This document shows, piece after piece, positions 1 to 5,887 of a stretch of DNA of 5,887 nucleotides. Where the stretch lies: assembly GCF_003334815.1 (NCBI RefSeq), contig NZ_QOWO01000070.1. One strand, 5' to 3'. The DNA is from Escherichia coli. Lineage in GTDB: Bacteria > Pseudomonadota > Gammaproteobacteria > Enterobacterales > Enterobacteriaceae. A program made the position numbers and the translations under genes. The notes under the pieces were generated by a model. That model did no database searches. It was not told the origin of the DNA and worked only from the letters and a program-made list of their open reading frames with translations. Within the stretch, counting starts at the first letter, position 1; each line of letters opens with the position of its first letter.

Positions 1-95
1 ATCGACGATTGCTGGAAAGGCTGGGCCATACTCCTCCGGCAGAAGCAGAAAAAGCTTATTATGCTTCCATCGGAAACAATGATCTGGCAGCCTGA
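1..95 (+). CDS. C-terminal 31 codons of IS3-family transposase OrfB (partial; 5' end outside window)
   Basis: Reading from base 3 gives RRLLERLGHTPPAEAEKAYYASIGNNDLAA then TGA at 93..95. This is the same as the C-terminus of the 290-aa ORF at 3770..4642 except for one D to N change. Confidence 0.8.
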   Translation, partial: RRLLERLGHTPPAEAEKAYYASIGNNDLAA

Positions 96-112
96 GTTCA
101 CAGATAAAACAC

Positions 113-137
113 TCTCCAGGAAACCCGGGGCGGTTCA
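113..137. repeat. Terminal inverted repeat (IRR) of IS629-like copy 1, about 25 bp
   Basis: The reverse complement of the terminus, TGAACCGCCCCGGGTTTCCTGGAGA, matches the IRL at 5811 (TGAACCGCCCCGGGAATCCTGGAGA) at 23 of 25 positions. Exact IR length is approximate. Confidence 0.65.
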
Positions 138-145
138 CTTCCCAA

Positions 146-179
146 CCATAATATTTCTGTCATTTCTGCCCCCTATTAT
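146..179 (+). promoter_or_regulatory. Putative promoter of the phytase-like gene: a perfect Pho-box half-site CTGTCAT (157..163), a 10-bp spacer, and a -10-like TATTAT (174..179)
   Basis: CTGTCAT is the 7-bp PhoB half-site consensus, and its spacing to the -10 resembles PhoB-dependent promoters. The distal half-site (146..152, CCATAAT) is weak, and no canonical -35 is present. Confidence 0.25.
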
Positions 180-226
180 GACGTTGTTTTTACTTCTGAG
201 CGATAACAACGAAAAGAGACAATGAC

Positions 227-1570
227 ATGCACAACTCCAAAATCCGACAAGCTGTACTGGTTGGATGCATGACGCTGAGCGCTAACCTGTGGGCCGAAGC
301 GCAGCCGGTGCAGGCAACGCTGGCTGGGCATGCACTGTTGCCAGTAACATCCGCCGTTTCAACTCCGAAGGATGCGCCGAGCGATCTGCAACAGAGCGGC
401 AAATACACCAGCGGCAAACGCGTCACCGAGCTGGGCAGCGTGGCGGGCAAATCCGCAGATCGTCTGACTGGACTCGGCCTGCCGATCAACGGTCAGCCGT
501 TGCAGGGCCACTCAGGTATCAAACACATGCCCGACGGTACCTACTGGGTGCTGACTGACAACGGCTTCGGCAGCAAAGCCAACTCCCCGGACGCCATGTT
601 GTACCTCAACCACTACAAAATCGACTTCAAAGACGGCACGGTAGTACCGCTGAAGACGCTTTTCCTGCATGATCCGGATAAGAAGGTACCGTTCCACATC
701 ATCAACGAGAGTACCGAACAGCGCTATCTGACCGGCAGCGATTTTGATCCCGAAAGCTTCCAGTTTTCCGACAATGCCTTATGGATCGGTGATGAGTTCG
801 GTCCTTACCTGATCAAGACCGACCTGAACGGCAAGGTGCTGGCGGTGTTCGATACTGAAGTGGATGGAAAGGTGATTAAATCGCCGGACAACCCGACGCT
901 GACCCTACCTGGCGCGCCGGACGGCAAGCAGAATTTCCAGGTTGCGCGTTCCAAAGGCTTTGAAGGCATGGCCATCTCGCCGGACGGCAGTAAGCTGTAT
1001 CCGCTGTTGGAAGGGGCATTGTGGGACGGTGAGCAGTTCGAGAACGTTGGCGGAAAACGCTACCTGCGTATGCTGGAGTTCGACGTCAAACAGCAGGTCT
1101 GGACTGGTCGCAGCTGGCAGTACGTGCTGGAAGACAACCAGAACGCCATCGGCGACTTCAATATGATCGATGACACCCACGGGCTGGTGATCGAGCGCGA
1201 CAACGGCGAAGGCACTACGGATAAAGCCTGCGTCGTCGGTGCGCCGACCAACAACTGTTTCAGTCAAGTAGCCAAGTTCAAACGAGTGTATAAAATCGCT
1301 TTCTCGGACACTAACGTCGGTAAACCTGTCGAAAAACTGAGCTATATCGACCTGATGAATATTCAGGATCCGAACAAGCTGGCACGCAAGCCGCTGAGTG
1401 ACGGTGTGCTGACCTTCCCGTTTGTCACCATCGAGAACGTGGATGTGGTTGACGCGAACCACATTATTGTAGGCAACGATAATAACTTCCCGTTTTCCTC
1501 CAGCCGCTGGCCTAATATGGCGGATGACAACGAGTTTATTCTACTTAATGTGAAGAATTTTCTGAAGTAG
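227..1570 (+). CDS. Sec-secreted phytase-like beta-propeller protein (esterase-like activity of phytase type family), 447 aa; function uncharacterised
   Basis: Long ORF with an N-terminal Sec signal peptide (hydrophobic core LVGCMTLSANLWA followed by EAQ) and a weak RBS (AAGAGA) 8 nt upstream. Repeated motifs (DNGFG, GDEFGP, FEGMAISPDG, ERDNGEG, GNDNNFPF) look like the phytase-like fold. The family call is from memory, not a search. Confidence 0.7.
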   Translation: MHNSKIRQAVLVGCMTLSANLWAEAQPVQATLAGHALLPVTSAVSTPKDAPSDLQQSGKYTSGKRVTELGSVAGKSADRLTGLGLPINGQPLQGHSGIKHMPDGTYWVLTDNGFGSKANSPDAMLYLNHYKIDFKDGTVVPLKTLFLHDPDKKVPFHIINESTEQRYLTGSDFDPESFQFSDNALWIGDEFGPYLIKTDLNGKVLAVFDTEVDGKVIKSPDNPTLTLPGAPDGKQNFQVARSKGFEGMAISPDGSKLYPLLEGALWDGEQFENVGGKRYLRMLEFDVKQQVWTGRSWQYVLEDNQNAIGDFNMIDDTHGLVIERDNGEGTTDKACVVGAPTNNCFSQVAKFKRVYKIAFSDTNVGKPVEKLSYIDLMNIQDPNKLARKPLSDGVLTFPFVTIENVDVVDANHIIVGNDNNFPFSSSRWPNMADDNEFILLNVKNFLK

Positions 1571-1792
1571 GGGGGAGATCATCTCATCGCTTACCTTAAA
1601 ACTATCATAAGGGTTTACTTCCCTTCAGCGGCGCACAAGGCGCAGGCTTCTGGCTTTCAGTCTTATCCAGGAGGAACATACTGAAAGGCCTGAGTAAACA
1701 TGAATAAAAGGAATATTATATAACAGATGATTCTAAACCACGCGACAAAGCGTTGAAGGAAGCCTGCGCGCAGCATGACGGGGCTTTACCAT

Positions 1793-1826
1793 AAAAAAAC
1801 GCAGGCTAACCGCGCCTGCGTTTTTT
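1793..1826. terminator. Bidirectional rho-independent terminator shared by the convergent phytase-like gene and phoX
   Basis: A perfect 8-bp GC-rich stem (ACGCAGGC at 1799..1806 pairing with GCCTGCGT at 1814..1821) with a 7-nt loop, flanked by an A7 run (1793..1799) and a T6 run (1821..1826). It lies 20 bp downstream of the phoX stop. Confidence 0.8.
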
Positions 1827-1845
1827 ATGACGGATGAAGCAGAAA

Positions 1846-3825
1846 TCAGGTGCCGATCATACCGCCGTCGGCTTTCACGATAACGACGGTTGAGGAACGC
1901 GGACGACTGGCCTTATCGCCGTCGGGCCAGCTTGATACTGCCGTCGGATGCTGCGGATCGCTCAGCCCTTCGGCTGGCTCGCCAGGGTGCTGGATGTTAA
2001 TAAACAGCGTCCGGTTATCCGGCGTGAACGCGATGCCGGTGATTTCGCAGCCACGCGGGCCGGTCAGGAAGCGGCGAAACTCGTTGGTACCGGGGATCGT
2101 CGCCACCATCTGGTTGTTGCCCATGCCTTCGTAATCTTTACGGTTGATGGTTGATGACGACACGTCGGTCTGGATCCACAGCACGCCGCGGTGATCGAAG
2201 CTCAGGCCGTCGGCGCTGCCGAATTCCGCGCCCTTCATGCTACCTTTGGCTTCCGGTTTGTCAGTATCGGTGCGACCGCCCATCACCAGAATATCCCAGG
2301 CGAACTGCAGCGCGGTCGGGTCGCCGTTCTGCTCCAGCCAGTGAATGATGTGACCGTAAACGTTTTTGCCGCGCGGGTTGGCCGCATCCACCGGCGCTTT
2401 GCCTTCCTTACCGCGATCGCTGTTGTTGGTGAGCGTGCAGTAAACGCTGCCTGTGTGGTATGGATCAACCGCAATCCACTCCGGGCGGTCCATTTTGGTG
2501 GCGCCCACGGCGTCTGCCGCCAGACGGGTTTTAATCAGCAGGTCGCCCTGGTTTTCAAAGCCTTTGCTGGCGTCAAGCCCGTTTTGGCCGAACACCAGCG
2601 GTAGCCACTCGCCTTTGCCGTCATCGTTAAATTTCGCCACATACAGCGTGCCTTTCTCCAGCAGGCGCATGTTGGCTTTGCGATCCCGCGGGTTGAATTT
2701 GCCTTCCGAGACAAATTTATAGATGTATTCGAATTTCTGGTCATCGCCCATATAAACCACAACGCGGTTATCCGGGGCGAGCGTCACCGCCGCGCCTTCG
2801 TGCTTGATGCGGCCAAGCGCGGTGTGCTTGCGCGGCACTGAATGCGGATCGTATGGATCGATTTCCACCACCCAGCCGAAGCGGTTCGGCTCGTTCGGCG
2901 TGACGTCAACGCTGAAACGCTTATCCACTTCGTTCCAGCGGTAAGAGCCGTCGCTGTCGCTGATGCCGTAACGTTTTTCCAGCGGGTTCATCTCCGCTTT
3001 TTTCACGAAAATATCGGACCAGTTCTCTTCGCACGTCAGATAGGTGCCCCACGGCGTAAAACCGTTGGCGCAGTTCTGCATGGTGCCGAGAATGGTTTCG
3101 CCTTTCGGATCGTCAGCCGTTTGCATCAGCGGGTTATGCAGCGCCGGGCCGGTGATTTTCATCGGCGTGTTAACGGTGATGCGGCGCGCGAAAGATGACG
3201 GGCGCACCACTTCCCAGCCCTGGGCCGCTTTTTTTACTTCAATGACCGACACGCCCATTGCGTTCTGTCCTTTCAGCGCTTTATCAGCGCTCCAGTTGGC
3301 ATCGCCATCTTTAAACAGCAGACCGTTATCGATGTATTCATGGTTCATGGCGAGCAGGCCGTGATCGACGCTGTGCCCGCCCTGCGGCAGGCTAAACCAC
3401 GCCATACCGTCGTGGTGCATCCCGGCCTGCGCCGCCTGCTCTTCCGTGGTGTTGCTGCCGTCGGTTTTAAAAACCGGCTGATTCCCGGCAAGCCCGGTGG
3501 CGTCGCCCCATTTGTATAAGGGCTTCGCGATGTAGCCTTCCGGCACGATAACGGTATCTTCCGTGGAAACCGGCAGACTGGTGAAACCGAGCGCCGTCGC
3601 TTTGCCGAGGTTACCGCTTACGCTGGAGACCGCTTTCGCCAGCGCGTTTTCCGGTTTCAGCAGAAACGGGAACGTTGCCGCGGCACCGGCGACCGCGCCT
3701 GTCTGTAACAGGCGGCGGCGCGACAAATAGACTTCCGCCACCTGCGAAAACGCGCGGTTATCACTCGGGTTGCTGGTCTCTTCACTATGCTCACGTTTGA
3801 ATAAAGTTTTTAACGATCTGCCCAT
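1846..3825 (-). CDS. phoX: PhoX-family alkaline phosphatase/phosphodiesterase, Tat-exported, 659 aa
   Basis: N-terminal twin-arginine motif LSRRRLLQTGAVAGAAATFPFL followed by an AxA-type cleavage region (ALAKA). Size and beta-propeller-like composition are typical of PhoX, including a WGTYLTCEENW motif. An RBS (AAGGAAA) lies about 8 nt upstream of the ATG at 3825. Confidence 0.8.
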   Translation of the reverse strand: MGRSLKTLFKREHSEETSNPSDNRAFSQVAEVYLSRRRLLQTGAVAGAAATFPFLLKPENALAKAVSSVSGNLGKATALGFTSLPVSTEDTVIVPEGYIAKPLYKWGDATGLAGNQPVFKTDGSNTTEEQAAQAGMHHDGMAWFSLPQGGHSVDHGLLAMNHEYIDNGLLFKDGDANWSADKALKGQNAMGVSVIEVKKAAQGWEVVRPSSFARRITVNTPMKITGPALHNPLMQTADDPKGETILGTMQNCANGFTPWGTYLTCEENWSDIFVKKAEMNPLEKRYGISDSDGSYRWNEVDKRFSVDVTPNEPNRFGWVVEIDPYDPHSVPRKHTALGRIKHEGAAVTLAPDNRVVVYMGDDQKFEYIYKFVSEGKFNPRDRKANMRLLEKGTLYVAKFNDDGKGEWLPLVFGQNGLDASKGFENQGDLLIKTRLAADAVGATKMDRPEWIAVDPYHTGSVYCTLTNNSDRGKEGKAPVDAANPRGKNVYGHIIHWLEQNGDPTALQFAWDILVMGGRTDTDKPEAKGSMKGAEFGSADGLSFDHRGVLWIQTDVSSSTINRKDYEGMGNNQMVATIPGTNEFRRFLTGPRGCEITGIAFTPDNRTLFINIQHPGEPAEGLSDPQHPTAVSSWPDGDKASRPRSSTVVIVKADGGMIGT

Positions 3826-4642
3826 TGCGGTTTCCTTTCAAAAAATCGATTTCAAGGGGAATCATTTTTATGCACGTGAGTCTACGGAAAGTATGTTACA
3901 GAAATATAATGAGATACAGCGCGTATACGATGAAAATCATCAGGTGTACGGTGTGCGTAAAGTCTGGCATCAGTTGTTACGGGAAGGAATCAGGGTGGCC
4001 AGATGTACAGTGGCGCGCCTCATGGCGGTTATGGAACTTGCCGGTGTTCTCCGGGGTAAAAAGGTCCGCACAACCGTCAGCCGGAAAGCCGTTGCCGCAG
4101 GCGACCGCGTAAACCGTCAGTTCGTGGCAGAACGTCCAGACCTGTTGTGGGTGGCTGATTTTACTTACGTCAGCACATGGCAGGGCTTTGTTTATGTGGC
4201 GTTCATCATTGATGTGTTTGCCGGATACATCGTGGGATGGCAGGTCTCATCGTCCATGGAAACGACATTCGTGCTGGATGCACTGGAGCAGGCGTTGTGG
4301 GCCCGTCGGCCGTCCGGCACAATTCATCACAGCGATAAAGGCACTCAGTATGTATCGCTGGCCTACACGCAGCGGCTTAAGGAAGCCGGATTACTGGCAT
4401 CAACAGGAAGTACTGGTGACTCGTATGACAACGCGATGGCGGAGAGCATCAATGGTCTTTACAAGGCGGAGGTAATACACCGTAAGAGCTGGAAAAACCG
4501 GACAGAAGTGGAGCAGGCCACACTCACGTGGGTGGACTGGTATAACAATCGACGATTGCTGGAAAGGCTGGGCCATACTCCCCCGGCAGAAGCAGAAAAA
4601 GCTTATTATGCTTCTATCGGAAACGATGATCTGGCAGCCTGA
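3770..4642 (+). CDS. IS3-family transposase OrfB (DDE integrase core), 5'-truncated fragment; the first 45 or so codons of this ORF are not IS-derived, so it is probably non-functional
   Basis: DDE-type motifs are present (WVADFTYV, HHSDKGTQYVS, AESINGLYKAEV) and the C-terminus LERLGHTPPAEAEKAYY is typical of IS3-family OrfB. There is no upstream orfA or frameshift window, and the ORF's 5' end overlaps the phoX start on the other strand. Confidence 0.8.
   Translation: MLVSSLCSRLNKVFNDLPIAVSFQKIDFKGNHFYARESTESMLQKYNEIQRVYDENHQVYGVRKVWHQLLREGIRVARCTVARLMAVMELAGVLRGKKVRTTVSRKAVAAGDRVNRQFVAERPDLLWVADFTYVSTWQGFVYVAFIIDVFAGYIVGWQVSSSMETTFVLDALEQALWARRPSGTIHHSDKGTQYVSLAYTQRLKEAGLLASTGSTGDSYDNAMAESINGLYKAEVIHRKSWKNRTEVEQATLTWVDWYNNRRLLERLGHTPPAEAEKAYYASIGNDDLAA
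3864..3901 (-). promoter_or_regulatory. Candidate phoX promoter: -10-like ATAAAAAT with a weak Pho-box-like CTGTAACATACTTTCCGT about 12 bp upstream (on the phoX-sense strand)
   Basis: Position and spacing relative to the phoX ATG are plausible. The proximal half-site matches the consensus poorly. The site lies at the junction with the truncated IS copy. Confidence 0.2.
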
Positions 4643-4684
4643 GTTCACAGATAAAACACTCTCCAGGAAACCCGGGGCGGTTCA
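3905..4684 (+). mobile_element. 5'-truncated IS3-family (IS629/IS1203-like) copy 2: the 3' roughly 60 percent of the element, with IRR but no IRL and no orfA
   Basis: Recognisable OrfB sequence starts around EIQRVYDENHQVYGVRKVW (about 3911) and runs to the terminus ...CGGTTCA at 4684. Upstream of about 3905 the DNA is the phoX 5' region. The left boundary is approximate, give or take about 15 bp. Confidence 0.8.
4660..4684. repeat. Terminal inverted repeat (IRR) of IS629-like copy 2
   Basis: Same terminus as 113..137. Similarity to 1..137 ends exactly after TTCA at 4684. Confidence 0.65.
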
Positions 4685-4705
4685 CAATTTTCTTCAACTG
4701 CAGGA

Positions 4706-4735
4706 CCTGACGGAAAACAAGTGATTTCCGTCAGG
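4706..4735. repeat. Perfect 11-bp inverted repeat (hairpin) CCTGACGGAAA / TTTCCGTCAGG with an 8-nt loop, 21 bp outside the IS629-like right end
   Basis: The two arms are exact reverse complements, read directly from the sequence. No U-run follows on either strand, so it is not a canonical intrinsic terminator. Confidence 0.6.
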
Positions 4736-4951
4736 GAGAAATCGCTTAGCGGGTGTTATCGCAGAAATTCCCACGGAGCCCCATCAACGCCAACCGGTGT
4801 ATATTTCATTTGTGGAGTCTCCAGTCTGAGGGAGCTTTATGCATCCCGTATTGGGCACTATGATGCCGGAAATCTGCGAGGCTCCACACCTGCCAGTTTC
4901 ACCCTTTTAACCATCATACTGCTCCGTGTTTAATTGTGTGGGATGCGTTCA

Positions 4952-5122
4952 TTACATTTTCACCATTTTGCCACTGCGGCCCCGGAAGACGAAGATATGC
5001 CCGGAGAACGGGTCATCTTTCAGCGTGTTCTGCACCTTCGAAGCTAGGCCGTTGAAGCCACAACGCATATCTGTGATGCCAGCGATGATCCAGATTCTGG
5101 TACCGGTCGGCAGCGTTATCAT
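4952..5122 (-). CDS. tnpB: IS66-family TnpB (orf2), truncated: 56 aa where about 115 aa is expected
   Basis: My own translation of the minus strand gives MITLPTGTRIWIIAGITDMRCGFNGLASKVQNTLKDDPFSGHIFVFRGRSGKMVKM then a stop, carrying the IS66 TnpB hallmarks (TDMR.GF.GL, DPFSGH.FVFRGR). Its ATG overlaps the upstream ORF's TGA as ATGA, the usual IS66 orf1/orf2 coupling. No frame continues the TnpB sequence beyond 4952. Confidence 0.7.
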   Translation of the reverse strand: MITLPTGTRIWIIAGITDMRCGFNGLASKVQNTLKDDPFSGHIFVFRGRSGKMVKM

Positions 5123-5796
5123 CGGATCCCCCCTTTCATTTCGCGAATGAGCACCCTAAGAAGTTCCGGAGTGAGAGGGGCAAACAGTTTTACCACACCT
5201 GATTTAAGATGCAGCTCACACTGTGGTGAGTCTACGGTAGTGTCACTCTGGCTTTCATCAGACTTATTTCGCCAGAAAGGATTTGTCACCGGTTTGACGG
5301 GGTCAGGAGTCTCAGTGATTGCCACCGGAACGGCCTGGCATTCCTGGAGATCCTCATCATTCAGCAAGCCCTCTTCATACAGTCTTTTCCAGTTAAACAA
5401 CAGATTGTCATTAATATTGTGCTCTCTGGCGATCCGTGCAACGACTGCACCAGGCTGTAATGCCTGTTTTACCAGCCTGATTTTAAATTCACGACTGTAG
5501 GAGGTTCGTCGTTCTTTTCGCCATGTGCTTTCGCTGATTTGAGGATCATCAGGTAATTCCTTCTTTCTGTTGGCATAAAGTATGGCATCGAGTTGGGCGA
5601 CTGAAAGTGATTCAGGTAATGGCCAGGTAATACCGGAGGCATTAAATCGTTGAAAGAGATTATGAATGGTGGAATGACTGAGACCTAACTGCAGGGCGAT
5701 AGCCCGGACAGATAATTGCTCGTCGAATCTTAGACGTAATGCGTCTGGCAAATAAGAGCGAAAGCCGGTGATATCTTTTGCTGTCTGAGAATTCAT
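5119..5796 (-). CDS. tnpA: IS66-family TnpA (orf1)-like HTH protein (C-terminal 130 aa or so) with an N-terminal 90 aa or so resembling an IS21-family IstA HTH; a possible in-frame chimera
   Basis: The C-terminal part (RRTSYSREFKIRLVKQALQPGAVVARIAREHNINDNLLFNWKRLYEEG ... ELHLKSGVVKLFAPLTPELLRVLIREMK) has the IS66 orf1 HTH and C-terminal pattern and is translationally coupled to tnpB. The N-terminal part (LSVRAIALQLGLSHSTIHNLFQRFNASGITWPLPESLSVAQLDAILY) resembles the IstA N-terminus with its WPLP motif. Both calls are from memory. Confidence 0.6.
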   Translation of the reverse strand: MNSQTAKDITGFRSYLPDALRLRFDEQLSVRAIALQLGLSHSTIHNLFQRFNASGITWPLPESLSVAQLDAILYANRKKELPDDPQISESTWRKERRTSYSREFKIRLVKQALQPGAVVARIAREHNINDNLLFNWKRLYEEGLLNDEDLQECQAVPVAITETPDPVKPVTNPFWRNKSDESQSDTTVDSPQCELHLKSGVVKLFAPLTPELLRVLIREMKGGIR

Positions 5797-5810: not shown

Positions 5811-5835
5811 TGAACCGCCCCGGGAATCCTGGAGA
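5811..5835. repeat. Terminal inverted repeat (IRL) of IS629-like copy 3
   Basis: Matches the reverse complement of the right-end termini at 23 of 25 positions. Confidence 0.7.
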
Positions 5836-5863
5836 CTAAACTTCCTGAGAAAGAGGTAAACAG

Positions 5864-5887
5864 GATGACTAAAAATACTCGTTTTTC
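5864..5887 (+). CDS. N-terminus of IS3-family OrfA (MTKNTRF...), partial at the window edge
   Basis: An ATG 53 bp inside the IRL with an upstream AGAGG. MTKNTRF is the start of the IS629/IS1203-type OrfA as I remember it. Confidence 0.7.

Follow-up and report, generated by a model that had tools for sequence, protein, structure and literature searches.

New classes of alkaline phosphatase, such as PhoX, PafA and Psip1, have each altered how the cycling of phosphorus by microbes in soil and ocean is measured. Among the described systems closest to the one presented here, the Bacillus beta-propeller phytase (PF02333, PDB 1POO) is a six-bladed enzyme, PhoX (PF05787) is an Fe/Ca alkaline phosphatase, and GlpQ, of the GlpQ/UgpQ type of glycerophosphodiester phosphodiesterase (GDPD, PF03009), is periplasmic and Ca-dependent. 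PhoAaty comprises PhoA of Synechococcus PCC 7942 and the alkaline phosphatases of dinoflagellates and Emiliania, which are activated by Ca, Mg or Mn (PMC4548154, PMC6723241), while Psip1 is a high-affinity Fe/Ca alkaline phosphatase of marine picocyanobacteria that reportedly lacks any conserved domain and has a six-bladed active site like that of PhoX (PMC11098088). Here we have analysed a stretch of 5,887 nt from Escherichia coli (contig NZ_QOWO01000070.1; hereafter the window), in which a gene of the PF13449 'Phytase-like' family (227..1570, plus strand; ATG start) encodes a 447-aa protein that is predicted to be a five-bladed beta-propeller. We assign a probability of roughly 60% to the reading that this protein is a PhoB-induced, periplasmic, divalent-metal-dependent phosphoesterase and that its gene is carried as cargo captured by insertion sequences (ISs) beside an independently acquired phoX.

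The open reading frame (ORF) reported at 227-1570 by the initial annotation is present exactly as described and is preceded by a Shine–Dalgarno-like AAGAG ~9 nt 5' of the ATG at 227. The proposed phytase-like family was also recovered, since the single Pfam match, at full length, is to PF13449 Phytase-like (residues 90-421, model positions 1-284 of 284, E 1.2e-60) and not to an unrelated family; this domain is precomputed on all homologues of the protein. The product is 100% identical to RefSeq WP_001316853.1 and 99.8% identical to orf34 of the Shigella SRL pathogenicity island (SRL PAI), which likewise adjoins IS66 elements (PMC6980539). The sequence is ~70% identical across proteobacterial classes, a very strong conservation, and is under strong purifying selection (dN/dS of 0.154 against the E. 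coli allele and of ~0.07 against Serratia). A representative search for PF13449 (50%-identity clusters) returned 1,962 clusters at E<=1e-3, the commonest architecture being the stand-alone form. The description of this family as largely uncharacterised was borne out: no NCBIfam model matches the protein even at E<=10, neither phmmer nor hmmsearch with a 59-sequence profile finds a relative in the PDB, and the literature searched contains no characterised PF13449 Phytase-like member, with no measured activity or solved structure. The 'Pseudomonas FB15 phytase', a candidate for such a member, appears from its description to be a conventional beta-propeller phytase and to lie outside PF13449. The locus is ordinary annotated accessory DNA, and the protein a catalogued member of PF13449 with nothing differing at the sequence level. 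Close full-length relatives (39–50% identity, TM 0.8–0.94) also occur in green algae (Klebsormidium, Edaphochlamys and Chlamydomonas incerta) and in the chytrid Gonapodya, as represented by the AFDB matches A0A1Y1HRK2, A0A836BZP8, A0A835TIR9 and A0A139A705, a distribution that points to an ancient origin or to exchange of the gene between bacteria and eukaryotes.

Phosphate control of the gene was assessed from its promoter. In PhoB-activated promoters, such as those of E. coli phoA and pstS, the -35 element is replaced by a Pho box, consisting of two 7-nt direct repeats at an 11-nt period and located ~10 nt before the -10 element. The top match to the Pho-box consensus CTGTCATAAAACTGTCAT in the whole window is CCATAATATTTCTGTCAT (146..163, plus strand; score 13), a putative PhoB site at the -35 position of the phytase-like gene, and this site is followed after 10 nt by the -10-like hexamer TATTAT (174..179, plus strand), as read from the sequence. 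Homologues have TATAGT at the same offset from the Pho box. Promoter geometry and the distance to the start codon are retained in Serratia, Pectobacterium, Halotalea, Providencia and an IS1-flanked E. coli allele, and a wider scan detected the same arrangement in Yersinia, Samsonia, Moraxella, Psychrobacter, Ignatzschineria, Suttonella, Comamonas and several Rhizobiaceae. Scores of at least 12 were found within 140 nt upstream of the gene in 31 of 83 loci as compared to 1.1% of windows drawn at random from these loci, a difference of ~35-fold, and some of the lower-scoring loci may use diverged Pho boxes. The architecture of this promoter is therefore that of the Pho regulon, with a position conserved across lineages, and points to PhoB control. 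Expression data for other organisms are available in two studies: Nodularia nsp7010 and nsp6490, annotated as members of the PF13449 Phytase-like family, are among the genes most strongly induced by phosphorus limitation (PMC9846622), and Sinorhizobium meliloti SMc00620, a 'phytase type phosphodiesterase' and possible member of PF13449, is the most connected gene of a phosphorus-stress co-expression network that includes phoB (PMC8829014).

A Sec type-I signal peptide is predicted for residues 1-23 (227..295, plus strand) from sequence features and a conserved pattern, the N-terminus having a basic n-region and a hydrophobic core followed by an AxA-type motif with predicted cleavage between LWA and EA. 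The same succession of n-region, hydrophobic core and AxA site was found in all 23 of the diverse homologues inspected, and no twin-arginine motif is present in the N-terminus of the 447-aa protein. As Cys14 is not conserved, these features identify the protein as one exported by Sec to the periplasm. A lipoprotein signal (LVGC, residues 11-14) was considered and ruled out on the same grounds, namely the lack of conservation of Cys14 and the conservation of the AxA site.

A very confident AlphaFold2 model of the protein, constructed from a 59-sequence alignment (pLDDT 95.6, pTM 0.92), indicates a five-bladed propeller because it contains five strand-turn-strand repeats that each close with an acidic motif (DNG 111-113, GDEFGP 188-193, LLEG 260-263, ERDNG 323-327 and GNDNN 416-420). 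These are the repeated motifs noticed in the initial annotation. In the model, the N-terminal strand at residues 31-38 probably closes the last blade. Conservation is dominated by Asp and Glu, with ~13 invariant or near-invariant acidic residues (D111, D149, D172, D174, E176, E190, E246, E262, E323, D325, D375, E403 and D418) accompanied by similarly conserved basic residues (R166, R324, K352 and R427), and this is the pattern that would be expected of a divalent-metal phosphoesterase site. Comparisons of the predicted structure were less specific. Foldseek searches of the PDB returned only generic propellers (TM ~0.3) and those of AFDB50 only uncharacterised PF13449 relatives. The predicted fold lies nearer to Ca-binding glutaminyl cyclase and YjiK than to Bacillus phytase or PhoX; the top matches include YjiK and NHL-type propellers, and PhoX falls outside the top 60. 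In the same structural comparison, Bacillus phytase (14.7), together with the Ca-activated nucleotidase SCAN (14.8), DFPase (14.5) and PON1 (13.4), scored no higher than unrelated glycosidase propellers.

These results bear on whether the protein is a genuine phytase that hydrolyses myo-inositol hexakisphosphate in the manner of the Bacillus beta-propeller enzymes. The two share export, a role in phosphorus scavenging and a propeller fold rich in acidic residues of the Ca-binding type, and a phytase would be consistent with the Pfam family name, with control by phosphate starvation and with the fusion of one relative to a true Phytase domain. We nevertheless consider this identity improbable: Pfam at E<=10 reports PF13449 only and no PF02333, none of the solved phytases is matched by the family profile, five blade repeats are predicted as opposed to the six of the Bacillus enzyme, and the presence of a true phytase domain in the fused relative points to a propeller activity that complements that of a phytase and is not the same.

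Similar comparisons were performed for the other described families. PhoX resembles the 447-aa protein in its propeller fold, Pho regulation, export and probable metal-dependent hydrolysis of phosphoesters, but the protein has no Pfam match to PF05787 and an hhalign comparison of the family profile with PhoX gave a probability of 0.5%. Induction by phosphorus limitation, export, D/E-rich repeated motifs and independence of zinc are points of resemblance to PhoAaty, and Nodularia nsp7010 is labelled with both names; this identity was ruled out as a regular-expression search for the four signature motifs (PDM..VANEGE, EPEY, LQENN and TANEGD; PMC4548154) gave 0 matches in the query and 300 family proteins. 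Psip1, compared by description, is an unlikely identity, because Psip1 has no CDD domain and the 447-aa protein belongs to PF13449 and has no similarity to PhoX. As a recently recognized, Pho-regulated propeller phosphatase formerly annotated as 'hypothetical', Psip1 does provide a precedent for the PF13449 family. Finally, GlpQ shares a periplasmic location and the GDPD domain is nested in relatives of the protein, but there is no PF03009 match in the 447-aa protein itself. Some single-domain homologues are named 'glycerophosphodiester phosphodiesterase' in databases; this name was most likely propagated from fusion proteins and does not apply to the 447-aa protein because it lacks a GDPD domain.

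The fusion partners of PF13449 provide the main indication of a substrate class. A Pfam scan of 38 multidomain relatives detected GDPD in 25, RTX repeats in 13, PhoA-type alkaline phosphatase, PhoD, PhoX and the Purple-acid-phosphatase N domain in three each, Exo_endo_phos in two, and a true Phytase domain and Metallophos in one each. In 22 of the 38 relatives, the propeller is interrupted where blade 2 meets blade 3 by an insert that bears the HRG motif of GDPD. This nested insert falls between query residues ~205 and ~210-242, a site at which the query has only a short loop. As judged from domain architecture, the GDPD fusions tie the propeller functionally to the breakdown of glycerophosphodiesters and organophosphates. 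Some relatives are giant secreted proteins of 1,000–3,000 aa, including cyanobacterial ones, that combine the propeller with a nested GDPD and RTX repeats and in some cases add PhoA, PhoD, PhoX, purple-acid-phosphatase N-terminal or true phytase domains; these look like multi-enzyme phosphorus-scavenging proteins.

Frequent fusion to phosphoesterases might also arise because the propeller is a helper, that is a non-catalytic Ca-binding module for substrate capture, a scaffold or a chaperone-like aid to other phosphoesterases. The variety of catalytic phosphoesterase domains with which it is fused or nested fits this explanation, as do the presence of binding modules among the top structural matches (YjiK and NHL-type propellers) and the absence of a reported activity from the literature searched. 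A helper function is less readily reconciled with the stand-alone form being the commonest and usually monocistronic with its own Pho box, with the ~70% identity across proteobacterial classes, or with the conservation in the blade motifs of ~13 acidic residues plus Arg and Lys, as in catalytic metal sites; hence we regard this explanation as unlikely.

Our preferred reading, a PhoB-induced periplasmic phosphoesterase, implies the following sequence of events. Transcription would be driven by the gene's own PhoB-type promoter, in which the Pho box replaces the -35 element, such that the propeller protein would be made when phosphate is scarce. After export by Sec, the protein would act in the periplasm as a five-bladed propeller whose top face bears the invariant Asp and Glu with Arg and Lys and may bind a divalent metal, probably Ca2+. 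The enzyme would then free phosphate, or a substrate for PhoX or PhoA, from periplasmic organophosphates, the favoured substrates being compounds related to glycerophosphodiesters or phospholipid headgroups rather than phytate.

Several points weigh against this reading. Metal dependence, phosphoesterase activity and substrate class are properties that we infer for the 447-aa protein, and catalysis itself has this status because no family member has a measured activity or solved structure; the nearest structural matches, glutaminyl cyclase and YjiK, are not phosphoesterases. The number of blades and the placement of residues on the top face were read from secondary structure and motif periodicity, and the substrate preference derives from the logic of the fusions alone. 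With regard to regulation, the Pho-box score is a simple match to a consensus built from known E. coli sites. The score is lower than 12 in ~60% of loci, a group that includes some with mis-set start codons. Many of the 83 loci are phylogenetically related, which inflates the count of high-scoring promoters, although the lineages represented are nonetheless many.

The second component of our reading, the separate acquisition of the phytase-like gene and phoX, is apparent from the modular structure of the window. Positions 1-4782 are 100% identical to the E. coli plasmid pJNE25-005_2 and consist of an IS3-family end (1-138), a Serratia-like segment (148-1570), a phoX segment (1589-3909) and a truncated IS3 (3908-4685). 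Chromosomes of the Serratia marcescens group match 148-1570 only, from promoter to stop, with 89–90% nucleotide identity and no PhoX nearby. In E. coli plasmids that have the phytase-like gene without phoX, the match covers 144-1584; in plasmids with phoX only it starts at 1589, and in chromosomal copies of phoX at 1743. These match boundaries in single-gene plasmids and chromosomes position the junction between the Serratia-like and phoX modules at 1585..1589; because the matches of phytase-like-only plasmids end at 1584 and those of phoX-only plasmids begin at 1589, two unrelated fragments have been joined at this point. Among 5,426 complete E. coli genomes, the phytase-like gene was present in 229 and full-length phoX in 132, and the junction in only four records, all of which are plasmids. 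Nearly all E. coli copies of the phytase-like gene are chromosomal, being a 93.5% allele located within IS-bounded islands. A ~4-kb block that extends from the IS end as far as position 4080 recurs with ~99% identity on IncI plasmids of E. albertii and IncF plasmids of E. coli, which indicates that it arose once and subsequently spread.

The flanks of this block are remnants of one type of element. At 1..138 (plus strand) is the right end of an IS3-family element, comprising the tail of a transposase ORF and a terminal inverted repeat at 113-137, and in the 100%-identical plasmid NZ_AP045059.1 this end continues as a complete IS3-family transposase that includes an AL1L frameshift pseudoknot. 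A 5'-truncated copy of the same element, containing part of orfB and the right inverted repeat, is located at 3908..4685 (plus strand) in direct orientation with the first, and the two ends (1-138 and 4548-4685) are direct repeats of 98% identity. The cargo is therefore flanked by two copies of the same IS, as in a composite transposon, but these copies are not intact: the right copy is cut at 3908 and is missing the left inverted repeat and orfA. A 290-aa ORF listed at 3770-4642 overlaps the start of phoX on the opposite strand and has homology to transposases from ~residue 42. Since IS homology begins at 3908, the first ~45 codons are not transposase-derived and the start at 3770 is an artefact of the junction. 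This arrangement probably arose through capture of a Serratia-like promoter-plus-gene cassette between IS3-family copies beside a separately acquired phoX, and the 4-kb mosaic has since spread among a few Escherichia plasmids.

The phoX gene (1846..3825, minus strand) encodes a 659-aa PhoX alkaline phosphatase (PF05787, E 4e-167) whose twin-arginine signal exceeds the curated TIGR01409 cutoff (17.2 vs 16.7 bits; SRRRLLQ at residues 35-41). We could therefore confirm the initial description of a convergent, Tat-exported PhoX and, together with the Sec pattern of the propeller protein, of two export routes. The two genes are separated by 275 nt, and the only strong hairpin in this spacer flanked by an A-run and a T-run (1793..1826, either strand) has an 8-bp GC-rich stem (1799-1806/1814-1821). 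This intrinsic-terminator-like hairpin lies 20 nt beyond the stop codon of phoX and 223 nt beyond that of the phytase-like gene, inside the phoX-derived segment, and could stop transcription in both directions because the A-run and T-run flank the stem. The earlier proposal of a shared terminator is supported to the extent that one bidirectional hairpin lies between the genes, and its use as terminator by both genes is plausible. The spacer (1571-1845) also folds unusually stably (z = -4.3), while an Rfam scan of the whole window, including this structured spacer, gave no match. A segment of ~150 nt 3' of phoX (1589-1742) is present in phoX-only plasmids and is not found with chromosomal phoX copies, for which homology starts at 1743.

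Upstream of phoX there is a weaker, tentative Pho-box-like site (TCATTATATTTCTGTAAC; 3895..3912, minus strand) followed by 10 nt and TAGACT. Its score of 11 is often reached by chance, namely in 5.8% of windows of 140 nt, and its first three bases have been clipped by the IS junction; a chromosomal phoX copy has TTGTTATATTTCCGTAAC in the same place, again followed by 10 nt and TAGACT. With a Pho-box-like site largely preserved at phoX as well, the two genes could plausibly be induced together.

The initial annotation had proposed that the propeller protein and PhoX form a two-enzyme unit for scavenging of extracellular organophosphates, and such a unit could involve a dedicated, co-selected pair in which a diesterase or 'opener' is followed by the action of PhoX on the monoester. 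Pho-box-like promoters on both genes, complementary export routes and the ~99% conservation of the 4-kb block on IncF, IncI and other Escherichia plasmids are in keeping with this proposal, as are three fusion proteins that join PF13449 to a PhoX domain. We examined co-occurrence of the two genes in 86 loci, of which 80 were obtained by scanning a single genome for each species (Serratia, Yersinia including Y. pestis, Providencia, Pectobacterium, many Burkholderiales, Campylobacter jejuni, Helicobacter, Moraxellaceae, Xanthobacter and Rhizobiaceae) and six were native contexts from separate look-ups. A tblastn search with the window PhoX detected a homologue within 10 kb in only three of the 86 loci, all in betaproteobacterial metagenome-assembled genomes; this juxtaposition, a point in favour of the proposal, arose independently of the E. 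coli one, and in two of the three a full-length phoX lies ~300 bp downstream on the same strand. The phytase-like genes of Serratia, Yersinia, Providencia, Pectobacterium and Rhizobiales stand alone and are usually monocistronic. Co-occurrence was thus not supported by these loci or by E. coli, where the four records of the junction contrast with the 229 and 132 carriers of the individual genes. When combined with a junction that joins two fragments and a dominant fusion partner that is GDPD and not PhoX, this rarity makes a dedicated pair highly improbable. The part of the proposal that stands is a role in phosphorus scavenging, for which the Pho box, the almost exclusive choice of phosphoesterases as fusion partners and the Nodularia induction data are evidence; the part that does not is the co-evolved pairing of genes from separate sources. 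The pairing at 227-3825 is a mobile-element mosaic, and the practical lesson of this locus is that adjacency to phoX should not be taken to indicate an operon-like system.

PF13449 is a large and highly conserved family that is apparently PhoB-wired in many lineages, and its fusion partners include almost all known types of phosphorus-scavenging esterase. The name 'Phytase-like' is misleading, and the family is an attractive candidate for a new class of Pho-regulon enzymes that could be tested cheaply with the 424-residue mature protein. A more general and tentative hypothesis, to which we give somewhat less than even odds, is that stand-alone PF13449 propellers constitute an unrecognized, widespread class of periplasmic phosphoesterases of the Pho regulon. 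These would be five-bladed and Sec-exported with a Ca-type metal site, would be unrelated to PhoA, PhoD, PhoX, PafA, Psip1, PhoAaty and true phytases, and would act on the products or substrates of GlpQ-type diesterases. If this is correct, the class spans Yersinia pestis, Campylobacter, islands of Shigella and E. coli, rhizobia, cyanobacteria, green algae and a chytrid, and has a role in recycling of phospholipid headgroups during phosphate starvation.

No conserved partner gene was evident in a clustering census of all neighbouring ORFs, as each ORF family was confined to 15 or fewer of 82 loci and the largest clusters consisted of generic ABC ATPases and of AraC/LysR regulators. Among genes related to phosphorus, only ppx (exopolyphosphatase) and ppk (polyphosphate kinase) recurred as neighbours, in ~8–9 mostly Rhizobiales loci; in most of L070, L071, L074, L078, L080-L082 and L087 (Rhizobiaceae), L039 and L089, the phytase-like gene is directly upstream of and convergent with ppx, which is followed by ppk. 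A link with choline and betaine, raised by a divergent betIBA in Halotalea, was ruled out because the recurring cluster consists of generic aldehyde dehydrogenases that are mostly more than 4 kb away. The product of ugpB is the binding protein for glycerol-3-phosphate and glycerophosphodiesters, and an orphan extra ugpB (4854-6170) is present on the E. coli LH10-b-1 chromosome (locus L091) 2.8 kb upstream of the phytase-like gene, with IS110 and IS2 between them. This link was also ruled out since ugpB was not found in any other locus.

Other observations concern the dispersal of phoX and the mobile elements around the module. A 112-bp piece of phoX (window ~2852-2963, gene positions 1007-1118) recurs at 93–95% identity in several hundred chromosomes and plasmids of E. 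coli from which the remainder of the gene is missing, and there it is annotated as 'alkaline phosphatase' and 'hypothetical protein'; this piece looks like a widespread phoX remnant. At the right side of the window, the terminal repeat found at 113-137 and 4660-4684 reappears as its inverted complement at 5811-5835, which indicates that a third IS3-family copy starts at 5811 and runs off the window edge. Directly next to this end (5811-5887) is a TnpA accessory gene of the IS66 family (5119-5796, minus strand; NF038385, E 8e-88). On the E. coli IncF plasmid CP099214.1 (locus L093), two copies of astA (heat-stable enterotoxin EAST1; 171-284 and 8888-9001) within IS1414-type elements bracket the two-gene module at a distance, and in another locus (L001) the module adjoins two-partner-secretion genes and fragments of type VI secretion genes. 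The proximity of astA/IS1414 and of these secretion genes indicates that the two-gene module travels in mosaic regions of virulence plasmids.

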